Positions 13,721-62,266 of a stretch of 64,000 bases of DNA are shown here, piece after piece. The DNA is taken from positions 72,757-136,756 of the forward strand of contig JAQQAL010000006.1 of NCBI GenBank assembly GCA_028532855.1. The letters are read 5' to 3'. Each line of letters starts with the position of its first letter. Position 1 is the stretch's first letter. Both the position numbers and the translations under genes were made by a program. The notes under the pieces were generated by a model. The model searched no databases. It saw only the letters and a program-made list of their open reading frames with translations, and was not told where the DNA came from. Origin of the DNA: Candidatus Thalassospirochaeta sargassi (GTDB lineage: Bacteria > Spirochaetota > Spirochaetia > UBA9216).

Positions 13721-15067
13721 ATGACGAGCTTTATTACTCTAATGCTGATATACACAGCAGCAGGAACCGGAATAGCAGTTTACGCCGGTCGCAGAAGAGG
13801 AAAAGATCAGGCTTCATATTTTATCGGCGGGCGCGGCATGAGCTGGCTGGTAAGCGCATTAACCTATGCTGCAACAACCTATTCATCCTTCATGATGGTA
13901 GGCCTTGTCGGGCTGTCGTATTCCACGGGTATCGGTGCAATGATATTTGAGATGACCTACCTCATTGCAACTATAATACTCCTGTCAATATACGGAAAAA
14001 AGATTTGGCAGATGAGCTGTGAAAAAGAGCTGGTTTCACCAATGGAACTTTTCTCTTTACAATTCGGAAAAGCGACAGGAACAGCCGGAGCCCTGATTTC
14101 AGCTGCTGCACTGATTCCATATACAGCAGCCCAGGTTATCGGACTTTCAATCATATTCCAAAACTTCGGCATAAGCTACGCAACGGGAGTAGCCATTGCG
14201 GCTGTATTGATTTGTGTCTGGTCGCTCATAGGCGGCCTTCGCGGGGTAGCCCTTACTGATGCAGTTCAGGGTTTGTTTATGATTGCCGTGGCAGTTGTTG
14301 CAGTTATCTGGGCCGGAAATAAATTCGGGGGCATTGAAACATCAACCTTCCCCAACAAGGTATGGACCCCCGTGTTCTTTATAAACATTACCCTGCCCTG
14401 GGCCTTCTTTGCACTTACAAATCCTCAGGTTGTTCAGCGGCTATTTATAATAAAGGACAAGGCCGGATTGAAAAAGATGATCATCCTGTTTGCCGCAGTC
14501 GGTACAGCTTATACAGTAATTACCTGCCTGCTTGGATTCAGCGCTAAATATGGAACAATGAATGGCGGCCTCAGTGAAATTACCGGCCGTGATAATGTTA
14601 TCCTCGGCCTGCTGGAAACTATGGGCAGAGGATTGGGCCTTGCAACCGCTTTAAGCATAGTATTCGCAAGCATCTCAACATCCAACTCAATTATCCTGAC
14701 CCTTTCATCAATGTTCACCAGGGATGTGGTACGCAAAACCGATAAAATCTGGTACGGCCGGGTCTTTATTGTTATAATCACTGCTTTCGTCGCGGTTTTT
14801 GCCGCAAGACGAACATCCTACATAGTTGAACTCTCTGTATCGACTTCACGTATCCTGATGTGCTTCCTGCCGCTGTTTTTCGACCTCTTCCATTTCAAAA
14901 AGGGAGGCAGAATTACCGGACCGCTGACAATTATCGGGGGAGCTGCGTCAGCAATCCTGTTCGGCCGTATTGGACTCCAGCTTAGCTCAGTCTGGACCCT
15001 TGCAGCAGCATTCGGTTTTTATTTTACAGGGGTGATTTTGGACAGTCGAAAGCTTAGTCGAAACTGA
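13721..15067 (+). CDS. Sodium:solute symporter family (SSF) transporter
   Basis: The length is 448 aa with about 12-13 predicted TM segments and an SSF-like glycine-rich N-terminus (YFIGGRGMSWLVSAL). Confidence 0.65.
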   Translation: MTSFITLMLIYTAAGTGIAVYAGRRRGKDQASYFIGGRGMSWLVSALTYAATTYSSFMMVGLVGLSYSTGIGAMIFEMTYLIATIILLSIYGKKIWQMSCEKELVSPMELFSLQFGKATGTAGALISAAALIPYTAAQVIGLSIIFQNFGISYATGVAIAAVLICVWSLIGGLRGVALTDAVQGLFMIAVAVVAVIWAGNKFGGIETSTFPNKVWTPVFFINITLPWAFFALTNPQVVQRLFIIKDKAGLKKMIILFAAVGTAYTVITCLLGFSAKYGTMNGGLSEITGRDNVILGLLETMGRGLGLATALSIVFASISTSNSIILTLSSMFTRDVVRKTDKIWYGRVFIVIITAFVAVFAARRTSYIVELSVSTSRILMCFLPLFFDLFHFKKGGRITGPLTIIGGAASAILFGRIGLQLSSVWTLAAAFGFYFTGVILDSRKLSRN

Positions 15068-16979
15068 TAATCTCACCGGGAGATTTGAGCTCATAACCGC
15101 CTAGTTTTTCAAGCTCGGCTGCAAATTCCGCCGACTGCAGGCAGGAAATGAAGGCCTGCAGAGACGGCACGTCAAGCATGTCTTTTCTGACGACAAAATC
15201 ATATTCTTCAGTTCCAACTGGAATAAAATCAAGCCCGTTTACCGAGGCCGCACTGTATACGCCTAGACCGGTATCGGCAGTTCCTGATTTAACTGCGGAG
15301 GCAACCGCCATATGGGTAGTCATCTCGCGAGTGTATCCGTTGATTGAATCAGGTGATATTCCCTTCCCACCTAGCATGTAATCAAGCAGAACCCTGGTTC
15401 CGGCACCACGCTGACGGTTGATATAGACAATTCCCTTTCCCTTGTCACACGGTAAATCCTCAACTGAAGTAATGTTTTTCGGGTTGCCGGGTTTTACAAT
15501 AAAGCCCTGGGTCCGGCCCACACCCTTTATCAGCGCAAAATCGGAAGCCTGGAAATATCGGCCGAAGAGATACTCATTATACTTTCCGTCCTCAGGGTTC
15601 AGCAGATGAACCGGAGCTATGTGGCATTCTCCCTTGCGAATAGCCATTACACCACCCATACTTCCCTGGTGTGTTGACGACAGTCCTGTATGACTTCCGG
15701 CCCTATGCATCAGTTCAGTTATTACATCGAGGAGCAGATCATGACTGCCGATACTGACTAGTCTGTTGTCAATTTCAGCCGAGGACCGTGTCAGCCTGAA
15801 CTCAACCTCTGCGCCGGCCTCCCAACCTTCACACTCCTGAGGGATTTCCAGGATACCGTCAGCCTGGACAAGACTCATTGTTATCCCTGCCCCGCGGTTC
15901 AGAGGGCTTATAACCATCCGACCTCCGACACTGCCGCATTTCACACGGACAAACTCACGGTGTTCGAGCGATGACGGTATTCTGCGAGTCAAAAAACCAG
16001 TCAGGAATTCCTCATCAGCTGCACCTATCCCCTGCATCAGTTCTATCAGAGGTTTAACCAACCTGTCAAAAATGACATAACCTGACACCGGGTAGCCGGG
16101 CAATCCTATAAGAGGCTTGTTCCCCGCCCGCCCGAAGATGGCGGGTTTACCGGGTTTGACTGCAACCCCGTGAAAGAGGAGCTCGCCAAAATGCCTGATA
16201 GTATCGGCGGAATAATCCTCAGTGCCTGCTGAAGAACCGGCGATGATTATAACCGCATCAGCCTGCTCTAGCGCTTTAGCAAATGCTTTCTTAATAAGTT
16301 CGGGATCATCTATTACAGGTTTCATCCGTAGGGGTTCAGCCCCGGCGTCCCGAACCATTGCCGCAAACATCCTTGAATTTGAATCAATTATCCCGCCATC
16401 GGTCATTTCTGACGGGTCTTCAATAATCTCTGTACCTGTGGGTATTATGGCAACAACAGGCCTTCTAAAGACCTCAATCTCAGTGATGCCGCCGGCCGTC
16501 ATTGCACCTATATCTACCGCCCTTATCCGCTGAAATGACGGGATTATCAGCTCGCCTGCGGCTATATCCTCACCTACATGGCGGACATGCTGCCATATTC
16601 TGGCCGGAGCTTTTATAACCACCCGTTCATCATCCGCTTCAAGCAGATCTTCCACCATTATTACGGCATTCCACGGTTCTGTTACAGGGTCTCCTGTATC
16701 AATCCATTTGAAACCGCTCCCCGCAGCAAGCTCAAGATGAGTCCTTTCATCTGCTGCCTCGGTGTCTGCTGAAATTACGGCAATCCCGTCCATCGCCGCA
16801 GCATTATGATTAGGCGATGAAAGAACAGCCTTTACCGATGCAGCTGAAACCCGCCCCAGAGCATCATAAACAGAGACGGTTTCAACACCTGTAAGTTCGG
16901 CTGAACGGAATTCAACCGCCAGCCGGGCCCCGGCCTCTTCGAATCTCAAATTATCCAGATAAACATTTCTTTTCTTCAT
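15054..16979 (-). CDS. MoeA-family molybdopterin molybdotransferase fused to a C-terminal periplasmic-binding-protein-like (PBP) domain
   Basis: A MoeA core spans the first ~400 aa (GELLFHGVAVKPGKP, LPGYPVSG). The C-terminal ~230 aa look like a type-2 PBP fold (GSHDLL...GTADTGLG). Confidence 0.65.
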   Translation of the reverse strand: MKKRNVYLDNLRFEEAGARLAVEFRSAELTGVETVSVYDALGRVSAASVKAVLSSPNHNAAAMDGIAVISADTEAADERTHLELAAGSGFKWIDTGDPVTEPWNAVIMVEDLLEADDERVVIKAPARIWQHVRHVGEDIAAGELIIPSFQRIRAVDIGAMTAGGITEIEVFRRPVVAIIPTGTEIIEDPSEMTDGGIIDSNSRMFAAMVRDAGAEPLRMKPVIDDPELIKKAFAKALEQADAVIIIAGSSAGTEDYSADTIRHFGELLFHGVAVKPGKPAIFGRAGNKPLIGLPGYPVSGYVIFDRLVKPLIELMQGIGAADEEFLTGFLTRRIPSSLEHREFVRVKCGSVGGRMVISPLNRGAGITMSLVQADGILEIPQECEGWEAGAEVEFRLTRSSAEIDNRLVSIGSHDLLLDVITELMHRAGSHTGLSSTHQGSMGGVMAIRKGECHIAPVHLLNPEDGKYNEYLFGRYFQASDFALIKGVGRTQGFIVKPGNPKNITSVEDLPCDKGKGIVYINRQRGAGTRVLLDYMLGGKGISPDSINGYTREMTTHMAVASAVKSGTADTGLGVYSAASVNGLDFIPVGTEEYDFVVRKDMLDVPSLQAFISCLQSAEFAAELEKLGGYELKSPGEIISFD

Positions 16980-18205
16980 AGCGGATAAACCCTCACTGCA
17001 GTTCCTTTGCTGTAACCCTCGGTATTAACCGGAATCCGAACCGAGCCTGAGGCTGACGCAAGCAGGCTTATCAGCCCGGATTCACCATGTACGGGAACAG
17101 CTTCATAGGCCTCTCCGTTCCGGCGCAGGTTCACCATCTGCCAGGCCTCACGACCGGGGGCTCCGTTCACATTCTCTGTTAAAAAAGCCTCTACCCAGCT
17201 TTCAATCGGCTGCTCAGAGCAGTTCATAAGCCTTACTAGATAGCTTCCTATTATACTGAAAACAAGCATTGCGGAAACAGGATGTCCGGGAAGGCCTATT
17301 ACCGGCTTGCCGCCGGAATTAGCAACAATAGTAGGCTTTCCGGGTTTAAAAGCAATTCCGTGACAGAGTATGCCTGGCTCGCCAAGGGAAGCGATAACCT
17401 GCTGCGAATAGTCCTTAACTCCGACGGATGAACCGCCGGACAGCATTACAATGTCACTTTCTTCCCGGCATTGCACAAGCGTCTCGCGCAGCAGCTGTGC
17501 ATCATCACCCACAACCTGGCGATGTACCACTCGGCAGCCTAGTTCCTCCGCAGCGGCGGCAATTGTGTATGTGTTTATGTCTCTAACCTGTCCAAGCCTG
17601 ATATCATCATCCGGGCCGGCAATCTCATCGCCTGTTGAAATAACCGACACAGCAAGTTTTCTGTATACCTCAACCCTCGTTAAACCGATTGACGTCAGCA
17701 CGCCAAGATCGGCAGCTGTAAGTTTCCGCCCTTTCTTCAGAATAAGTTCACCCTTTTTAATGTCGTCACCGACGGAGATTACATGTTCTCTGGCGGCAGC
17801 CGGCCTGTAGATAGCAACCTCATTATCGGTAAGCTTTTCAGTATATTCAATCATTACAACCGCATCAGCACCATCCGGCACCATACCCCCGGTAGGCACA
17901 TAGACTGCATCACCGGGACCTACTGCCGTATCCGCCGGATGCCCCATCTTTACCTCGTCCCGCAGCATTAAAAATGCAGGAAGACTGTCGGAAGCACCCG
18001 AAATATCAGCAGACCTTAGCGCGTATCCATCCATTGTAGAGCGTCGAAACGGGGGCACTAGTTCAGCTGAAGCAGTATCACAGGCAAGAAAACGTCCGGA
18101 GGCTACACTGACATCTATGGTCTCAGTATCAAGCCTGTATGAAGAAAAATTTTCCGCAAGTAAGGCTTTAAGATCTTCTATTGTAATAACATTAAGCAAT
18201 TCCAT
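16976..18205 (-). CDS. moeA: Molybdopterin molybdotransferase MoeA
   Basis: The length is 409 aa, with MoeA/gephyrin-E hallmarks (LSGGSSVGVKDY, FKPGKP, GLPGHPVSAMLVF). An ATGA overlap links it to the downstream MoeA-PBP gene. Confidence 0.8.
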   Translation of the reverse strand: MELLNVITIEDLKALLAENFSSYRLDTETIDVSVASGRFLACDTASAELVPPFRRSTMDGYALRSADISGASDSLPAFLMLRDEVKMGHPADTAVGPGDAVYVPTGGMVPDGADAVVMIEYTEKLTDNEVAIYRPAAAREHVISVGDDIKKGELILKKGRKLTAADLGVLTSIGLTRVEVYRKLAVSVISTGDEIAGPDDDIRLGQVRDINTYTIAAAAEELGCRVVHRQVVGDDAQLLRETLVQCREESDIVMLSGGSSVGVKDYSQQVIASLGEPGILCHGIAFKPGKPTIVANSGGKPVIGLPGHPVSAMLVFSIIGSYLVRLMNCSEQPIESWVEAFLTENVNGAPGREAWQMVNLRRNGEAYEAVPVHGESGLISLLASASGSVRIPVNTEGYSKGTAVRVYPL

Positions 18206-53916: not shown

Positions 53917-54498
53917 ATGAAAAACAATCAGAACAGCAGAATTTTCGGTATTGTTGAAACCGCAGGAATAATTGACAAGGCCGTTTATTCGATGATGAAG
54001 TACCAGAGGGAACTAAAACTAATCGATAAGAAATTTGAAAGCCACATCATGCTGGCGGTTTCAGAAGTCAACGGCTGCCGGATATGCACCTATGTACATA
54101 CCCAGCACGCTCTCACCTCCGGGACATCCGAAGAGGAACTGTCACACCTGCTGGACGGCAATATAGACGGTGCCGACCCTGAAGAAGCAGCAGCCCTGCT
54201 GTTTGCACAGCATTATGCCGACACCTCCGGCAGCTATGATCCTGCTGCATTCGAAAGACTGATTGAAACATACGGAAAAGACAAGGCTTCTGGAATCCTT
54301 GCGACTATCAGGCTGATTATGTTTGGAAATTCATTGGGGATAAATCAAGGCTTTTTTACAGACCGCTTCAAAGGGAAGCGAAACCCGGACAGCCGCCTGT
54401 GGAACGAAATCTTAGTGATGCTCTGCCCGCTCGTACTGATTCCGGCTGCAGCAATCAGAAATCTTTTCAGGCGTAAAACACAACTACAGGTTCAGTGA
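53917..54498 (+). CDS. Carboxymuconolactone decarboxylase/AhpD-like family protein
   Basis: NGCRICTYVHTQHA matches the CMD-family NGCxYCxxxH motif. Confidence 0.6.
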   Translation: MKNNQNSRIFGIVETAGIIDKAVYSMMKYQRELKLIDKKFESHIMLAVSEVNGCRICTYVHTQHALTSGTSEEELSHLLDGNIDGADPEEAAALLFAQHYADTSGSYDPAAFERLIETYGKDKASGILATIRLIMFGNSLGINQGFFTDRFKGKRNPDSRLWNEILVMLCPLVLIPAAAIRNLFRRKTQLQVQ

Positions 54499-55220
54499 AC
54501 ACTCATCATCGCACGAAAACGCTCATACGGGGTACTGTGCGGCATGCCGAGTGAAGCCCGGTATGTATCAAGCGAGGGGTCATCCCATCGTATAAATGGA
54601 TTAACCCGAAGCTCCTGAGCAATTGTCGTTGAGAGTAGTTCTCTGACATATGACGCTTTGTACTGGTTCAGGTATGGATTATCCGGATCTATCCTCTGTA
54701 TAACGCCGGTTGTGTAATCGAAAATATCGTGGCCGGCATAAATCCTTGTTTCGGGAGGAAAGCGCAGCACCTTCTGAAGCGATTCAAAATAAAGCTCATA
54801 ATCCTTAGTATAACAGTTACCGACAGTTCCGTTAAAAAGAGTATCACCTGTTAGAAGGCTTCCGTTTCCTTGCGATTCTGCATTGTCATCATTGAAGTAA
54901 AAAACAATGGATTCTTCAGAATGTCCCGGTGCCGGAAATGCTTCAAGCTGTTCGCTGCCTATCTTCAGCACCTTGATGCTGCACATAATATCCGGGGTAA
55001 TGTTTACAGCATCAGTTCGAGTAAGCAGATCCTCATTTCCGTGAATATGGTCCCGATGCTCATGGGTGTTTGTTACATATTTCACTTCAAGCCCTTCGGC
55101 TTCAGCGAACGCTGTTATTTCATCCGGCGCTACACCGTCCACCGCAACTGCCTCCCGGCCTGACCAAAGCAGGTATCCCAGGTTACCCTCATTCCCATAT
55201 CTGAACTGTTTAATCTTCAT
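54492..55220 (-). CDS. MBL-fold metallo-hydrolase, glyoxalase II (GloB)-like
   Basis: THEHRDHIHGN (the HxHxDH motif), GHSEES and a C-terminal NPFIRWDD (cf. the GloB NPFLR motif) are present. The start is placed at the ATG at 55220 by homology with GloB N-termini; the longest ORF extends to 55337 without recognisable similarity. Confidence 0.7.
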   Translation of the reverse strand: MKIKQFRYGNEGNLGYLLWSGREAVAVDGVAPDEITAFAEAEGLEVKYVTNTHEHRDHIHGNEDLLTRTDAVNITPDIMCSIKVLKIGSEQLEAFPAPGHSEESIVFYFNDDNAESQGNGSLLTGDTLFNGTVGNCYTKDYELYFESLQKVLRFPPETRIYAGHDIFDYTTGVIQRIDPDNPYLNQYKASYVRELLSTTIAQELRVNPFIRWDDPSLDTYRASLGMPHSTPYERFRAMMSVH

Positions 55221-56118
55221 GTCTACCAAGCATACAGCTGAATGAGTCTGCAGTCCAGCGGCGGTATACACAGTTATAACAGTTTTCTGCACCGTCGCCG
55301 ACATGCTCTTCAGGAACATCGAATCTGAATTTTTCACATGCGGGTTTTATCGCCCTCTCTTCACCGAAGTTTCGCATTTCATTCTTCACAAGAGTAGACC
55401 AGAAATCGTGTTCCGGCTTCTGACGAACTAAGAGAACAGGGAAACCTTCATGAAGTACTGGCTTTGCCTTCCAACTGATAAAGACCTCTTCATGCCGGGC
55501 GAGCGAATCCATTTCCAGCGTACATACATCCGATATCAGCTCATGTGTAAGAAGACTGTTTACAGTAAAACGTCGACCCTGCTCAAAACAGCCGATGCCG
55601 CCCTTAACCTCACCGTCGTTTCCGTGAAGACGTAGACCTATCCCTGCAAGTGCTCCGATAACACCCTCTCCGTTTCCTCCGAACTCATTAAGAAAAATAC
55701 CAGCTTCATCGGCAAGTGCATAGGCGGCATCCTTTGTAAGAACTTCAACCTTCGCCCTGTAGCCGAACTCAATAATCCGGTGCTGAAGCGGAATATCTGC
55801 ATCAAGCTTTTTTATATCGGCTATACACATACCCGGATCCGAACCTTCAGCCGACTCGGCTGCCAGGTAACGGGACAGTTCAATCCTTAGATCTGTGAAA
55901 TACTTTTCATCAATCGACGCCCCAAAGCACATTGAAGAATTATGCGAGGTATAGCGGACATCCTCGTGCAGAACAAGCTGATGACGTGATATTAAGCCGC
56001 AGCCACCCCAACCGCTGCGCTTAATGATATCAGTCATTTCAGCGGCAATGGAGCCGGTTCCACGGGATTCAAGATTATCGGTATCGTCTATGCAGATCAG
56101 AAGATTCATGATCAACAA
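55210..56118 (-). CDS. Hypothetical protein with an N-terminal IDDTD motif (possible TiaS-kinase-domain-like/DUF protein) and a C-terminal Cys cluster
   Basis: The N-terminal LLICIDDTDNLESRGTG recalls the GIDDTD start of the archaeal TiaS kinase domain (from memory). The C-terminus has CYNC...C. It is co-oriented with and abuts the MBL gene. Confidence 0.45.
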   Translation of the reverse strand: MLIMNLLICIDDTDNLESRGTGSIAAEMTDIIKRSGWGGCGLISRHQLVLHEDVRYTSHNSSMCFGASIDEKYFTDLRIELSRYLAAESAEGSDPGMCIADIKKLDADIPLQHRIIEFGYRAKVEVLTKDAAYALADEAGIFLNEFGGNGEGVIGALAGIGLRLHGNDGEVKGGIGCFEQGRRFTVNSLLTHELISDVCTLEMDSLARHEEVFISWKAKPVLHEGFPVLLVRQKPEHDFWSTLVKNEMRNFGEERAIKPACEKFRFDVPEEHVGDGAENCYNCVYRRWTADSFSCMLGRHED

Positions 56119-56342
56119 CTCCTTTTCACAATGGAAGGCATATCCTTTTCCGCAAATACCCTGTCGCCCTGCTGCTCATAGACAGTACTTCCATAGAACC
56201 TCAGGAACGCTGTTGTTTCTGATATTAGGGAATATTTTAGCATGAATTTTTATCTATGGTCGATTGTAAATTCTCTCATTCATACCTTTACCTCAATCCA
56301 ATGCTGAATTAAACTTAAACTATATACAATTCGGGGGAAAAG

Positions 56343-58172
56343 ATGAACGCGAAACGATATCTAACAGAACTCATTGCAATTCTTCTAATTGCTTCAGTAA
56401 CTCTGTTTTATTCCTGCAGCAGAGAAGAGTACACTCTGGAAGAAATTGAGGAAATAAAAACCGATGAAGAAAATACCTTGTTATCTAAAACCGTTAGTAA
56501 ACCGGGCGGTGTACCATTTGAGGTCGGCAAGGTGGGCGGCGAATGGACAAGTTCAGTAACAGCTGATCCGAAAACATTTAACCTCATTGTAGCGCATACC
56601 GATGCTGAGTCCATGGCTATAATAGGCAGTCTCTATGCCTATCTCGCCGATTATGACCCCTATGAACGAGAGTGGAAACCGGACCTTGCATCATTCAAGA
56701 TAGCGGCCGATGAAGCAGCAGGAACTCTCGATGTAATTTTCACAATCCGCGACGATGCCTTCTGGACAACCTACGGTAGCGATGAAAAAATCAAGGTTAC
56801 CTCCGATGACGTAGTTTTCTGGTACAACGAGGTATGGGGAAATCCTGAAACGAACTCATCAGGCTACAACGGCCAGTTTATTCAGATGGAAGACGGTACA
56901 TCTGCTCATATTGACATAGAAAAGATAGACGACCGCAGGTTCAGTTTTCATTTCCCAAGAATCATAGCAAATCCGATTCTTACCTGTAATATGTATTTCG
57001 GCCCGAAACATCAGTATGCACCGGCATATGAAGAGGGCGGAACTGACGCCATGATGGACTTATTCACAGTTGACACAGATGTATCGCAGCTTGCATGCAT
57101 CGGTGAATACTACCTGATTGAATATACCCCCGGGGTACGCCTTGTTTATGCCCGAAACCCGTATTTTTACAAAAAGGATGCTGCCGGAATCAGCCTCCCC
57201 TACAGGGAAAAATCAATTGCCCAGATAGTCCCTGATCAGAACACCGAGTTCCTCCTTTTTAAAAACGGAGAAAAAGACAGCTATACGGTAAGACCGGAAG
57301 ATCTAGAAGATCTGCTGTCGATTGAAGAACCGGACTACACCGTATATAACGGCGGGGCAAGCCTTAGATCATCCTTTGTTTCTTTTAACCAGAACCCGAA
57401 GGCCCTTGATGATAAATATCATCAGTGGTTCAGCAAAAAGGAATTCAGGCAGGCTATGAGCCGCCTGCTTAACCGCGAAAGAATTATCAAGCAGGTTTAC
57501 AGGGGGCTTGCCGAACCTGCTCTAGGTTTCTTTGCGACAGCAAACCCCTATTACAACGACAGCCTGAAGAATGAATATACCTATGATCCGCATAAGGCTG
57601 CTGAACTAATGAATTCCATAGGAATCACCCCCGATGAAAACGGACTTATGACCGATGAGAATGGGAATCATATTGAGTTTGATCTTGTTCTTGGTGCAGA
57701 CAGCACGGTTGGCGTCGATATTGCAAATATAATTTCAGATGAATGTGCGAAGGCCGGAATAACAGTCAATGTAAAACCTCTTGATTTTCAGAAGGTCGTC
57801 GATATGCTGATGAGCACCCATGACTGGCATTCTGTAATGATTTCACTCGGTACAAACTACTGGCCTACACAGGGAAGCAACGTCTGGCCGTCCGACGGCA
57901 ACCTTCATCTCTGGCACCCCAACCAGGAAAGTCCGGCAACCGATTGGGAAGCGCGGGTAGATTACCTCTATAATGAGGGTTCATTCACTGTCGACAGGGC
58001 AAAGGCTGAGGTCATATGGGATGAATACCAGGGCATTATCCTTGAACAGCTTCCGGTTTTATACCTTGTTCACCCGCTCTCTTTCACTGCAGTGCGAGAT
58101 AAATGGGGGAATGTCTACTACGACACCCTGGGCGGACTGGATACCAACTACCTCTTCCTGAAAGAGGAATAG
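56343..58172 (+). CDS. ABC transporter substrate-binding protein, family 5 (peptide/nickel, OppA/DppA-like), probable lipoprotein
   Basis: The length is 609 aa. A signal peptide ends in a Cys (LFYSCS). The family-5 SBP layout and its position ahead of the two permeases and two ATPases support the call. Confidence 0.75.
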   Translation: MNAKRYLTELIAILLIASVTLFYSCSREEYTLEEIEEIKTDEENTLLSKTVSKPGGVPFEVGKVGGEWTSSVTADPKTFNLIVAHTDAESMAIIGSLYAYLADYDPYEREWKPDLASFKIAADEAAGTLDVIFTIRDDAFWTTYGSDEKIKVTSDDVVFWYNEVWGNPETNSSGYNGQFIQMEDGTSAHIDIEKIDDRRFSFHFPRIIANPILTCNMYFGPKHQYAPAYEEGGTDAMMDLFTVDTDVSQLACIGEYYLIEYTPGVRLVYARNPYFYKKDAAGISLPYREKSIAQIVPDQNTEFLLFKNGEKDSYTVRPEDLEDLLSIEEPDYTVYNGGASLRSSFVSFNQNPKALDDKYHQWFSKKEFRQAMSRLLNRERIIKQVYRGLAEPALGFFATANPYYNDSLKNEYTYDPHKAAELMNSIGITPDENGLMTDENGNHIEFDLVLGADSTVGVDIANIISDECAKAGITVNVKPLDFQKVVDMLMSTHDWHSVMISLGTNYWPTQGSNVWPSDGNLHLWHPNQESPATDWEARVDYLYNEGSFTVDRAKAEVIWDEYQGIILEQLPVLYLVHPLSFTAVRDKWGNVYYDTLGGLDTNYLFLKEE

Positions 58173-58176
58173 CCGG

Positions 58177-59253
58177 GTGTGCACACTTAGATTTTTAAGC
58201 CGTGCCGCGGAGGGGGTTTTCAATCTTAAGAATAAAAACCCTCTGGCAAGCTTTATCCTGATACGTTTCATCTCAATGGTGATAATCCTGTTTATTCTCG
58301 GTTTCGCGGTCTTCGGTCTTATGTCGCTTGCGCCCGGAGACATTGTTGATCAGTATGCCCAGAAACAGCTGTTTGCAATGACTGAAGGTGCTGATCAGGG
58401 TGATGAGACAATGACTGAACAACAGCTTGCCGAGATAAAAAGACAGCTCGGCCTTGATCTTCCGTTTTACAGGCAATACCTCAGGTGGCTTCATCAGGTT
58501 TTTGTCGAGCATGACCTGGGGACCTCAATGATTAGCCGTGCGCCTATCCTGTTTTTGATTCGCAGCAGGCTTATTAACTCAATCATCCTGAACCTTATTT
58601 CACTGGTTTTTCTTACAGGAATTTCATTCGCCCTGGGAATCTATTTTTCATCAAAGGTCGGCACCAGAACAGATCTTGCGGCAACCTTCATTGCGCTCTT
58701 TCTACATGCTTTTCCGGGACTGCTGCTGCTTATTCTGCTTCAGCTATTTGCTGCGCTTACCAACCTGTTTCCGGTAACCGCCTACCCGGACTTCCCATAC
58801 GCCGAAGCGCCCACGAGGTTTGTATTCAGCTACCTGCATCACATCATCCTGCCGCTTATCGGAGCATTCCTGGGCGGCATAGGCGGTACAATGAGAATGA
58901 TAAGAGCCACTATGCTTGACCAACTTGGTCAGCCCTATATAACAGCACTTCGATCGCGCGGGGTTTCAGAACGGAGGGTTTATTTAAACCATGCCTTTCG
59001 CAACACGCTTAACCCCTATATTACAAGCAGTGCGAATCTGCTGGCAAGCCTTTTTTCAGGCTCGCTGATCCTGGAGATAATATTCTCCTACCCAGGTATA
59101 GGCCGCCTGATGTATGAGGCCGTCAGGCAGGAAGATATAAACCTGGTTCTGGCAAACATCATGTTCATCTCATTTCTGGTTCTAACGGGAATGCTTGTTG
59201 CCGATATTCTTCTGGCGCTTGTTGATCCGCGAATAAGGTACTCAGCCGAATGA
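58177..59253 (+). CDS. ABC transporter permease (OppB/DppB-like)
   Basis: Six TM segments and an EAA-like loop are present. It lies downstream of the SBP. Confidence 0.75.
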   Translation: MCTLRFLSRAAEGVFNLKNKNPLASFILIRFISMVIILFILGFAVFGLMSLAPGDIVDQYAQKQLFAMTEGADQGDETMTEQQLAEIKRQLGLDLPFYRQYLRWLHQVFVEHDLGTSMISRAPILFLIRSRLINSIILNLISLVFLTGISFALGIYFSSKVGTRTDLAATFIALFLHAFPGLLLLILLQLFAALTNLFPVTAYPDFPYAEAPTRFVFSYLHHIILPLIGAFLGGIGGTMRMIRATMLDQLGQPYITALRSRGVSERRVYLNHAFRNTLNPYITSSANLLASLFSGSLILEIIFSYPGIGRLMYEAVRQEDINLVLANIMFISFLVLTGMLVADILLALVDPRIRYSAE

Positions 59254-60326
59254 AAAACTTCTTTTATGCACTGCGCAGACGCCCCGTCGCAATGGCGTCC
59301 TTCATCATTCTTATTATGCTGTATCTGGCTATGGGTCTTGCAGAATTTGTCGCACCCTACAGCCCTGCCGCGAGCTTCCCGGATTACAGCTTCCACCCGC
59401 CGAACACCGGCTGGTACAGCAGTGAACTCGGATTCGGCCCCCAGATACAGGGTTATGCAGTTATTAATGAGGTCACCTGGAAATACGCAAGACTGAAGGG
59501 CGAACACAACCGGATTAGCCTGTTCGAGAAGGGAGAACCCTACAAGCTTTGGGGATTAATTCCTGCCGAGCGTCATCTCTTCGGGGTAGGACCTGATTCG
59601 AAATACCCCCTTTACCTCATGGGCAGCGACAATCTTGGTCGCGATCTGTTTTCCAGAATAATCTACGGCAGCAGAATATCCCTGTCAATCGGCTTTATAG
59701 GAATCTTCATTTCAATGACGCTGGCAATCCTGTTCGGAGGCCTGGCCGGATTCTACGGCGGCTTCGTCGACTGGCTGATCATGAGGGTCTCGGAGTTTTT
59801 TATCCTGATTCCCGGTTTATATCTGATACTGTTTATGCGCTCAATTCTGTCGCGAAACATGGATTCGGGGCAGTCCTATATGATAATTACTGTAATTCTG
59901 TCGTTTGTCGGCTGGCCGGGCAGTGCAAGACTTATCCGCGGAATGGTGCACAGCATCAAACGTGAAGACTTTATTCAGAACGCGATTCTTGAGGGCATAC
60001 CCGCAGTGAGCATTATCTATAAGCAGATTATCCCTCAGATGTCGTCGATTATAATCGTCAGCATAGCACTGGGAATTCCAGGGTTCATCCTCGGTGAGAC
60101 AGCCCTATCCTATCTAGGATTGGGTATTATTGATCCGGCTGTCAGCTGGGGCTCACTGATTAACCGCGATATCTCGACAATAAATAATCTGCGCAATTAC
60201 CCCTGGGTGTTGACCCCGGGGCTATTCCTGCTGGTAACAACCCTTGCCTTCAACTTCATAGGTGATCTGCTGCGCGATGTATTTGATCCCTACTTTAAGG
60301 ACAGACTCAATGCTGGAAGTAAATAA
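59250..60326 (+). CDS. ABC transporter permease (OppC/DppC-like)
   Basis: An N-terminal extension, six TM segments and an ATGA overlap with the previous permease are present. Confidence 0.75.
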   Translation: MKNFFYALRRRPVAMASFIILIMLYLAMGLAEFVAPYSPAASFPDYSFHPPNTGWYSSELGFGPQIQGYAVINEVTWKYARLKGEHNRISLFEKGEPYKLWGLIPAERHLFGVGPDSKYPLYLMGSDNLGRDLFSRIIYGSRISLSIGFIGIFISMTLAILFGGLAGFYGGFVDWLIMRVSEFFILIPGLYLILFMRSILSRNMDSGQSYMIITVILSFVGWPGSARLIRGMVHSIKREDFIQNAILEGIPAVSIIYKQIIPQMSSIIIVSIALGIPGFILGETALSYLGLGIIDPAVSWGSLINRDISTINNLRNYPWVLTPGLFLLVTTLAFNFIGDLLRDVFDPYFKDRLNAGSK

Positions 60327-61287
60327 TCTGAAAGTAGATTTTAATACCCCGCGCGGCCGGCTGCAGGCTGTCAGGGGAGTATCGCTCAGCCTTGCAAAAG
60401 GTGATTTTCTGGGAATTGTAGGTGAAAGCGGCAGTGGAAAAAGTGTTACAGCATCTTCAATAATGAAACTCCTTCCGGCAAACGCTGTCATGAGCGGCAG
60501 CATAATATTAAGCGGTGAAAACCCGCTGGAAATGACGCCTGCCGAACTTAGAGCATTCAGGGGCCGGCGGATTGCGATGATCTTTCAGGAACCGGGCCGC
60601 TCGTTTGATCCGATCTACAATATGAGTAAAACCTTTCTGGAAACCTTTAGAACCCTCAGCCCGGGTATAACCGAGGAAGAATCCGACGCGCGCGCTGTTA
60701 AACTCCTTGAAGAAGTTAATCTGTCAAAGCCGGCAGAGAGACTGGGGAATTTTCCGCATCAGTTCTCAGGAGGCCAGCTGCAGAGGATAATGATTGCCCT
60801 GGCTCTGGCGTCGAACCCGGAACTGCTAATTGCTGATGAACCTACAACAGCCCTCGACGTCACCATTCAGTCAGAGATTGTCGACCTGCTGATGAACCTG
60901 CGAAAAACGCGCGGAATGGCGATAATATTCATCACCCATGATATAGAACTTGTATCTAACATCGCCGACAGGATAATAGTGATGTACAGCGGCCTCGTCA
61001 TGGAAGAGAGCTCGGCTGCTGATATTATGAAAAATCCGATGCACCCATATACTGCCGGGCTTCTGGGCTCACTGCCGACATTCGGGGATCATTACAGCCG
61101 TCGAAAACTCGTTTCAATTCCGGGAGGAATTCCGGATCCTGTTTATCCCGAACCGGGCTGTCCCTTTGAACCGAGATGTCCGTTTGCACGCCCGGAATGC
61201 CGTAACAGAATCCCCGGACTCGATCGCAAGGATGGTAGATACCGATGCGTAATAGACGGAGCAAAGGAGCCGGGCAGGAATGGATAA
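60310..61287 (+). CDS. ABC transporter ATP-binding protein (OppD/DppD-like) with C-terminal oligopeptide-type Cys motif
   Basis: Walker A (GESGSGKS), the signature LSGGQLQRIMIA, Walker B (LLIADEPT) and a C-terminal CPFEPRCPFARPEC are present. The start is set at the ATG at 60310, which follows an AAGGA Shine-Dalgarno. Confidence 0.8.
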   Translation: MLEVNNLKVDFNTPRGRLQAVRGVSLSLAKGDFLGIVGESGSGKSVTASSIMKLLPANAVMSGSIILSGENPLEMTPAELRAFRGRRIAMIFQEPGRSFDPIYNMSKTFLETFRTLSPGITEEESDARAVKLLEEVNLSKPAERLGNFPHQFSGGQLQRIMIALALASNPELLIADEPTTALDVTIQSEIVDLLMNLRKTRGMAIIFITHDIELVSNIADRIIVMYSGLVMEESSAADIMKNPMHPYTAGLLGSLPTFGDHYSRRKLVSIPGGIPDPVYPEPGCPFEPRCPFARPECRNRIPGLDRKDGRYRCVIDGAKEPGRNG

Positions 61288-62266
61288 CATACTTACTTAT
61301 ACTGATGTACATAAACGCTTCAATCTCGAATCAGGACTCTTCTCATCATTTGGAAGATTTGTCTACGCCGCCAACGGAATATCTTTCAAGATAAAACGCG
61401 GAACAACCTACGGTCTTGTAGGGGAATCAGGATGTGGCAAAACGACAACAGCCAGGCTCGGGGTCGGGATGTATCACCATGATGCCGGAAAAATTGTATA
61501 CCGCGGTTCGGATGGCAGCAGTTTCGATTCAGAAAGAATGGAAAAGGCCCAGCTGAAAAAACTCCGGCAGAAAATGAAATACATATTCCAGGATCCGGCA
61601 AAATCACTGAATCCGCGGATGAATATATACCGGATTCTTACATCCGGCTACAGGCATGCGGAATCATGGCCGGGCGAGTCTGAAGCCAGGCGCGAAGCCG
61701 AACAGATAATGCTGGATGTAGGGCTCTCCCCGGGCGACCTTAGTCGAAGACCGACTGATTTTTCCGGCGGGCAGAGACAGCGCATTTCAATTGCCAGGGC
61801 ACTGATTATGAAGCCTGAGTTTATCATCTGTGATGAGGTAGTCTCTGCCCTGGATGTTTCAATCCAGAGTCAGATTCTAAACCTGCTTATGGATATCCGG
61901 GGAAAATACGGTCTTTCAATTCTATTTATAGCCCATGACCTGACTGTTACAAGCTGGTTTTGCGACAGAATCGGGGTGATGTACAGGGGCAGGATTGTTG
62001 AAGAAGCCGCTGCGCAGGATATAGCAGCTGACAGGTTTCATCCCTACACGAGACTGCTGTATGACAGCATTCCATCGAGGATGATGATTCACCGTGATCG
62101 CAAATCAGGAACGGCGGCAGAATTCGATTCTGGCAGGCCGCTGACCGGCTGCCCGTTTGAGCATCGCTGTCCATACAGCGTCCCCCGCTGTACCGAGGAA
62201 GTCCCGGAACTTGAGAAAGTCGGCGACGGCCACCTCAGCGCCTGTTTCAGAAATGGAGAGATTTAG
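61280..62266 (+). CDS. ABC transporter ATP-binding protein (OppF/DppF-like)
   Basis: Walker A (GESGCGKTT), the signature FSGGQRQRISIA, Walker B (FIICDEVVS) and a C-terminal GCPFEHRCPYSVPRC are present. Confidence 0.8.
   Translation: MDNILTYTDVHKRFNLESGLFSSFGRFVYAANGISFKIKRGTTYGLVGESGCGKTTTARLGVGMYHHDAGKIVYRGSDGSSFDSERMEKAQLKKLRQKMKYIFQDPAKSLNPRMNIYRILTSGYRHAESWPGESEARREAEQIMLDVGLSPGDLSRRPTDFSGGQRQRISIARALIMKPEFIICDEVVSALDVSIQSQILNLLMDIRGKYGLSILFIAHDLTVTSWFCDRIGVMYRGRIVEEAAAQDIAADRFHPYTRLLYDSIPSRMMIHRDRKSGTAAEFDSGRPLTGCPFEHRCPYSVPRCTEEVPELEKVGDGHLSACFRNGEI

Follow-up and report, generated by a model that had tools for sequence, protein, structure and literature searches.

Riboswitch control and genomic context point to a candidate role in tungsten handling for a bacterial family of TiaS-kinase-like proteins

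The window analyzed here, a 64,000-nucleotide stretch of DNA from Candidatus Thalassospirochaeta sargassi, encodes a bacterial protein whose N-terminal half is genuinely homologous to the kinase domain (TCKD) of TiaS and has retained its catalytic residues. The gene lies directly behind a Moco-type riboswitch, and its homologues are found, again and again, among genes for molybdenum and tungsten uptake and cofactor synthesis. The family is large: one scan found it in at least 560 species, and at 50% identity it falls into 370 clusters (E up to 1e-30). No described function for it was found in the literature searched, as a preliminary description of this DNA had already held. We favor, by a modest measure of confidence, the view that its members carry out an ATP-dependent cytoplasmic step in tungsten acquisition or cofactor assembly, and that this step is repressed by the finished cofactor.

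The reading frame and its IDDTD N-terminus were found where the preliminary description had placed them (Table 1), but the protein is in all likelihood shorter than the 302 aa given there. Translation almost certainly starts at the ATG at 56109 (MNLLICIDDTD..., 299 aa), because the database copy (P0001) has 299 aa and a GGAG lies 9 nt 5' of that ATG. The stop codon is TAA (55212-55210).

Table 1. Features of the window discussed in the text.
Feature	Position	Strand	Basis or remark
Target ORF as listed	55210..56118	-	302 aa from TTG
Target residues 1-165, TiaS-type kinase domain (TCKD)	55615..56109	-	Profile, predicted structure, family alignment
Target residues 166-250, beta-rich middle domain	55360..55614	-	AF2 secondary structure
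Target residues 251-299 and stop, Cys4 tail	55210..55359	-	Separable module
GloB-like MBL-fold hydrolase (putative), 242 aa	54492..55220	-	ORF listed 54492..55337
Moco-type riboswitch aptamer (RF01055), P3-less "Tuco" type	56103..56224	-	Rfam
Promoter-like site, TCGACC-18 nt-TAAAAT with TG	56234..56263	-	Consensus scan only
Five-gene ABC importer, peptide/nickel (Opp/Dpp) family	56343..62266	+	Divergent from target
Tandem moeA (409 aa) and moeA::PBP_like fusion (641 aa)	15054..18205	-	Same window

The relationship to TiaS, suspected in the preliminary description from the N-terminus, is borne out by both sequence profile and predicted structure. The predicted protein has the TCKD fold and resembled the TiaS kinase domain in a PDB fold search. 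The TiaS_TCKD profile (PF22641) scored 20.7 bits (E 4.5e-4), below the Pfam gathering score of 27, and phmmer with the single sequence gave no match in the PDB, so that TiaS was reached by the family profile only; several homologues carry a precomputed PF22641 match. The protein is a divergent member of the TCKD superfamily. Its motifs are IDDTD (7-11), G-T18-G (17-19), RHQ (42-44), YTSHNSSM (53-60), SDPG (90-93) and GGxGxGxIGAxAGxGLR (144-160). D8, D9, D11 and T18 are invariant in 46 family members (alignment A1) and fall on the same-numbered residues of TiaS in the HMM alignment. In TiaS, the Asp triad and Thr18 reportedly have catalytic roles, and the enzyme is said to autophosphorylate on Thr18. 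By analogy, the bacterial fold would bind ATP-Mg via the Asp triad and carry a phosphorylatable Thr18, and, as far as can be judged from its residues, the protein would use ATP.

The middle domain was predicted with a pLDDT above 90 (AF2). In the 46-sequence alignment, invariant residues around it include NDGExKG (164-170) and K216 (WKxKP). In PDB fold searches, only some 160-180 residues of the protein could be aligned with TiaS and nothing else matched strongly; no relative of the middle domain was recognized. The CxxC-containing tail noticed in the preliminary description is also present. Its cysteines (C258, C277-x2-C280 and C292) belong to the family pattern ...C..F..DVxEE...C.NC.YRRW...F.C, in which C, D, E, C, N, C, RR and C are invariant. 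Gene context was surveyed in 84 other genomes or loci of anaerobes by means of a crude ORF caller and BLAST clusters, some of the loci being short contigs. In about 19 loci the tail is fused to the protein; in about 42 it has an ORF of its own, about 65-105 aa long and mostly just downstream of the homologue; in the remaining 23 none was found within 3 kb. A search for Pfam or PDB relatives of the Cys4 tail returned none, and its assignment to a known zinc-finger or RiPP-like family was rejected on this ground. Readthrough of the roughly 250-aa forms by selenocysteine or frameshift was rejected as well, because any of TAA, TAG and TGA may end them and the tail does not keep to one frame. The tail is apparently a separate small ORF, with a Met start seen in the one case read (L022).

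UniRef labels the window protein tRNA(Ile2) 2-agmatinylcytidine synthetase, and a bacterial counterpart of TiaS activating cytidine or another base in tRNA or other RNA would agree with this name. The only characterized TCKD protein does act on tRNA C34 (Terasaka 2011, Osawa 2011, cited in PMC6313347), and the Cys4 tail might form a zinc ribbon resembling that of the TiaS C-terminus. However, the TiaS equivalog NF040849 scored 29 bits against a cutoff of 600 and matched over profile positions 1-155 of 422 only, Pfam and fold searches detected no OB, ferredoxin-like TiaS or other RNA-binding domain, and the tail is dispensable in 23 of the 84 loci. A tRNA substrate is unlikely for this family because its members are bacterial, riboswitch-controlled and set within Mo/W uptake and cofactor loci. 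Judged by its sequence, the protein does not belong to the tRNA agmatidine synthetases; the label is almost certainly wrong for bacterial members, and we regard RNA modification as extremely unlikely.

The 224 nt that separate the gene from the divergent ABC operon had been described as a promoter region. The intergenic region is there, but it is not a promoter alone since it contains the riboswitch. The window copy scored 38.5 bits over the full model (1-135), a narrow margin of 2.5 bits above the Rfam gathering score of 36, and the P3 columns are deleted in its cmscan alignment. The 3' strand of P1 contains the Shine-Dalgarno sequence of the target gene (GGAG, 56122-56119), and the aptamer match crosses the ATG (56109-56107) to end at 56103. 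Taken alone, this copy has two mismatches in the consensus P1 register and a minimum free energy fold no better than that of shuffled sequences (z -0.5); RNAfold paired AACAAC with GUUGUU beside the Shine-Dalgarno sequence. The riboswitch found in the same position in a related contig (L090), which was outside the training set, scored 59.8 bits (E 4e-12). Among 68 related copies, all of them 116-125 nt long and without P3, 92.4% of the alignment cells were paired and 15 of 21 pairs had changed on both sides. None of 500 shuffles did as well and all controls were far lower, in an alignment that was fitted to the model and thereby favors the structure. With filters off and in Rfam E-value mode, no riboswitch was found in the close relatives L091, L009, L003 and L001 (Dehalobacter), nor in L008. 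The promoter-like site is weak evidence because such sites are no commoner than expected from shuffled sequence; its position is compatible with a transcript starting ahead of the aptamer.

P3-less RNAs of the Moco type, the "Tuco" subclass of Regulski et al. 2008, track tungsten use (PMC2408646). A Shine-Dalgarno sequence embedded in P1 would fit a translational off-switch. Riboswitches of the Moco/Tuco type were present in 36 of the 84 loci, in about 32 of which they are placed to control the homologue, either 80-420 nt upstream of it (about 15 loci) or ahead of an operon that ends in it (about 17). The loci, 1.19 Mb in all, hold the 68 P3-less copies, or about 57 per Mb; five such riboswitches are reported for the whole genome of Eubacterium limosum (PMC11725836). 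Other than tRNAs and one Na+ riboswitch, the search of the loci for B12 or other riboswitches returned Moco-type RNAs only.

A riboswitch, Mo/W genes or an importer of the MolBC-A-like, ECF or TupABC-like type, the three kinds tied to the family, were present in 69 of the 84 loci, and the homologue is usually the last gene of the importer operon. Its Mo/W neighbors are MoeA (adjacent in 8 loci), MoaA, MoaC, MoaE, MOSC, MFS_MOT1 and TupA-like genes. Further neighbors are a Mo/W-bisMGD oxidoreductase, an anion porin and a protein of the AA-kinase family, which we take to include the molybdenum storage protein. Two moeA genes in the window show that the organism makes Mo/W cofactor, and the same MoeA pair adjoins the homologues in L019 and L052. 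In L090, a gene of the tungsten AOR family lies 1.6 kb from the orthologue. Members of one sub-branch of the family are fused to a DAO+Fer2_BFD flavoprotein or encoded beside it; this flavoprotein presumably resembles glycerol-3-phosphate dehydrogenases, and the sub-branch has no Mo/W context. This sub-branch and the lack of the riboswitch in close relatives speak against a tungsten role.

The importer operons were characterized in one locus, L010. Its permease matched MolB (HI1471, 2nq2_A) best, with 243.5 bits against 173 for HmuU, 140 for BtuC and 123 for FhuB. Its binding protein matched MolA (HI_1472, 3psa_A) at 1.3e-16, in third place after two unannotated structures. Both components point to HI1471 and HI1472, which makes the operon MolBC-A-like; MolBC-A itself transports molybdate (PMC4031551). 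Uptake of cobalamin, heme or siderophores by the FecCD operons was rejected because the riboswitches are of the Moco type and the permease is MolB-like.

The FecCD-type operons could instead import iron for the Fe-S clusters of tungstoenzymes, with the last gene releasing or processing the chelate. In E. limosum, the Tuco regulon comprises WOR1, tupABC, fetABC1/2 and focA, its FecCD-type operons were interpreted as iron transporters, and cellular iron was 12-fold higher on lactate (PMC11725836). The Pfam and NCBIfam names of the binding protein are iron-siderophore-like, and its other PDB matches include iron- and nickel-binding proteins. Nevertheless, among the characterized structural relatives of the permease MolB is the best by a wide margin, and in loci without a FecCD operon the gene is accompanied by TupA-like, MOT1, ECF and Moco-biosynthesis genes. 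Moreover, FetABC1, one of the two Tuco-controlled FecCD-type ABC operons of E. limosum, was induced by tungsten limitation according to the same paper. We therefore consider iron import improbable.

A salvage kinase was considered as well. Type II ABC, ECF and TonB-dependent systems typically carry cofactors, so that a riboswitch-controlled importer of one of these types might bring in pyranopterin, with B12 as the parallel, and the TCKD enzyme would re-phosphorylate or otherwise re-activate it. TCKD is a kinase fold, some operons start with a secreted lipoprotein having a partial, Moco-binding Oxidored_molyb domain, and the sub-branch fused to DAO+Fer2_BFD would suit a small-molecule kinase. 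On the other hand, it is the oxyanion importer MolBC-A, and not BtuCD, HmuUV or FhuB, that permease and binding protein resemble most, the same loci hold TupA-like, MOT1 and anion porin genes, and we know of no bacterial uptake of pyranopterin. Salvage is thus unlikely, if slightly less so than iron import.

The invariance of Thr18 is also what one would expect of a regulator or chaperone without small-molecule chemistry, in which autophosphorylation would gate the importer, or W rather than Mo would be delivered to MoeA. The gene sits at the end of importer operons that appear to be without a regulatory TOBE domain, and the Cys4 and Arg-Arg tail could bind an oxyanion or thiometalate. Against this, the many polar residues that are invariant outside the ATP site (RHQ, YTSHNSS, NDGExKG and K216) look like a substrate pocket, and we give this possibility as little weight as iron import.

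The preliminary description had joined the TCKD protein to its neighbors, a GloB-like MBL-fold hydrolase and the divergent ABC operon, in one possible functional unit. Several of the component observations were sound. The hydrolase, which likely starts at the ATG at 55220 (MKIKQF), has Lactamase_B and HAGH_C matches above the Pfam threshold and the HxHxDH motif in the form THEHRDH; the GloB equivalog TIGR03413 scored 103.1 bits, below its cutoff of 200.8. Its ATG overlaps the target stop in a stretch of 11 nt, as described, which implies co-translation of both genes in the window genome. The ABC operon likewise consists of the five genes expected of an Opp/Dpp/Nik-type (cluster C) importer: SBP_bac_5, two BPD_transp_1 permeases and two ATPases with oligo_HPY. 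The closest solved relatives of its binding protein bind oligosaccharides, peptides or nickel.

The unit itself was not upheld. Four related spirochaete contigs (the window, L009, L090 and L091) are the only ones in which the hydrolase gene directly follows the target. At this chromosomal site, the target stands without the hydrolase in L003 and the hydrolase without the target in L092. Beside the homologues of about 80 other loci the hydrolase gene was absent, the sole further match, in L070, being weak (25% identity) and some 6 kb distant. An obligate partnership was rejected on this synteny; from its sequence, the GloB-like protein would be a putative hydrolase and a lineage-specific passenger or partner. 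No other locus of the family was found to have the Opp-like binding protein, and the operon of this protein, on the opposite strand and outside the riboswitch transcript, is probably not part of the target system. A pathway in which the TCKD protein and a GloB-like thioesterase process a peptide or small molecule brought in by this transporter could draw on the overlap, on the conservation of the pair in four contigs and on the general link of the family to importers. It is largely refuted because the two genes occur independently, an outcome that the preliminary description had itself named as refuting, and we hold it to be very unlikely.

In the tungsten role that we favor, an uncharacterized family widespread in anaerobes would have been recruited to the homeostasis of the tungsten (possibly molybdenum) cofactor. 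The mRNA in the window would start with the P3-less riboswitch. When metal-pyranopterin cofactor is plentiful, the aptamer would close over the Shine-Dalgarno sequence and translation of the target would stop, probably together with that of the overlapping hydrolase gene; when cofactor is scarce, the protein would be made. We infer that it is cytoplasmic. Its position at the end of MolBC-A-like and ECF operons and beside tupA-like, MOT1, moaA/C/E, moeA and MOSC genes would place its action after uptake of tungstate or molybdate and either ahead of metal insertion by MoeA or in parallel with it. In chemical terms, an ATP-driven activation or hand-over would be most likely, and the step could be directed at the oxyanion, the pterin or the small Cys4 partner, which is fused here as the C-terminal tail.

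A bolder version can be proposed only tentatively, and we think it more doubtful than probable. According to it, the TiaS-type kinase and its Cys4 partner would constitute a new ATP-dependent step that activates or hands over tungstate or pterin for tungstopterin, and the "iron" ABC operons, ECF modules, TonB receptors and anion porins would together make up a system dedicated to acquiring tungsten with high affinity in anaerobes.

Tungsten enzymes (aldehyde oxidoreductases, formate dehydrogenases and benzoyl-CoA reductase) drive much of anaerobic carbon metabolism, in settings that include gut, syntrophic and dehalogenating communities. How tungsten is captured, discriminated from molybdenum and fed into the cofactor is still being worked out (PMC13197769 and PMC11725836). 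The family described here is a concrete and widespread candidate for a missing step in tungsten handling by anaerobes. It would place the TiaS kinase fold for the first time in a context other than tRNA, correct the automatic tRNA(Ile2) agmatidine synthetase annotation of UniRef in bacteria, and open the Tuco-controlled "iron" transporters to re-reading as MolBC-A-like tungstate importers.

TiaS of A. fulgidus (AF2259; PDB 3AMT, 3AMU, 3AU7, 4RVZ and 5XOB) has about 420 aa against 299 and shares the kinase domain alone in sequence, the beta-rich middle domain being different. Unlike archaeal TiaS, the target is bacterial, riboswitch-controlled and set in Mo/W uptake and cofactor loci, and has a separable Cys4 tail. 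Methanogenesis marker protein 11 (TIGR03280), archaeal and uncharacterized, is likewise a short TCKD-containing protein of unknown function. It matched residues 5-163 at profile positions 134-283 of 292 (E 1e-6) and is about as distant from the target as TiaS, but its TCKD lies C-terminal behind another domain and the family is restricted to methanogens. With MogA/MoaB (MPT adenylyltransferase) and MoeA (metal insertase) the analogy would be functional only, that of an ATP-consuming activation near metal insertion, as there is no relationship in sequence or fold. MolBC-A, the type II molybdate/tungstate ABC importer of Haemophilus influenzae (HI1470/71/72; PDB 2NQ2, 3PSA/3PSH), is the closest solved relative of the permease in the homologue operons and a close one of their binding protein. 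Operons like it stand beside the gene in many relatives, whereas none adjoins the target in the window, and to our knowledge the H. influenzae system has no TCKD partner. The Tuco regulon of E. limosum, of the same P3-less class, controls FecCD-type ABC operons as in the target family, and the searched text of that paper makes no mention of a TiaS-like gene (PMC11725836). A Eubacteriaceae locus of our survey (L015) has the order riboswitch, Big_5, FecCD, ATPase, target homologue and binding protein. In contrast to the iron reading given for E. limosum in that paper, the permease is here MolB-like and a TiaS-like gene recurs in such operons.

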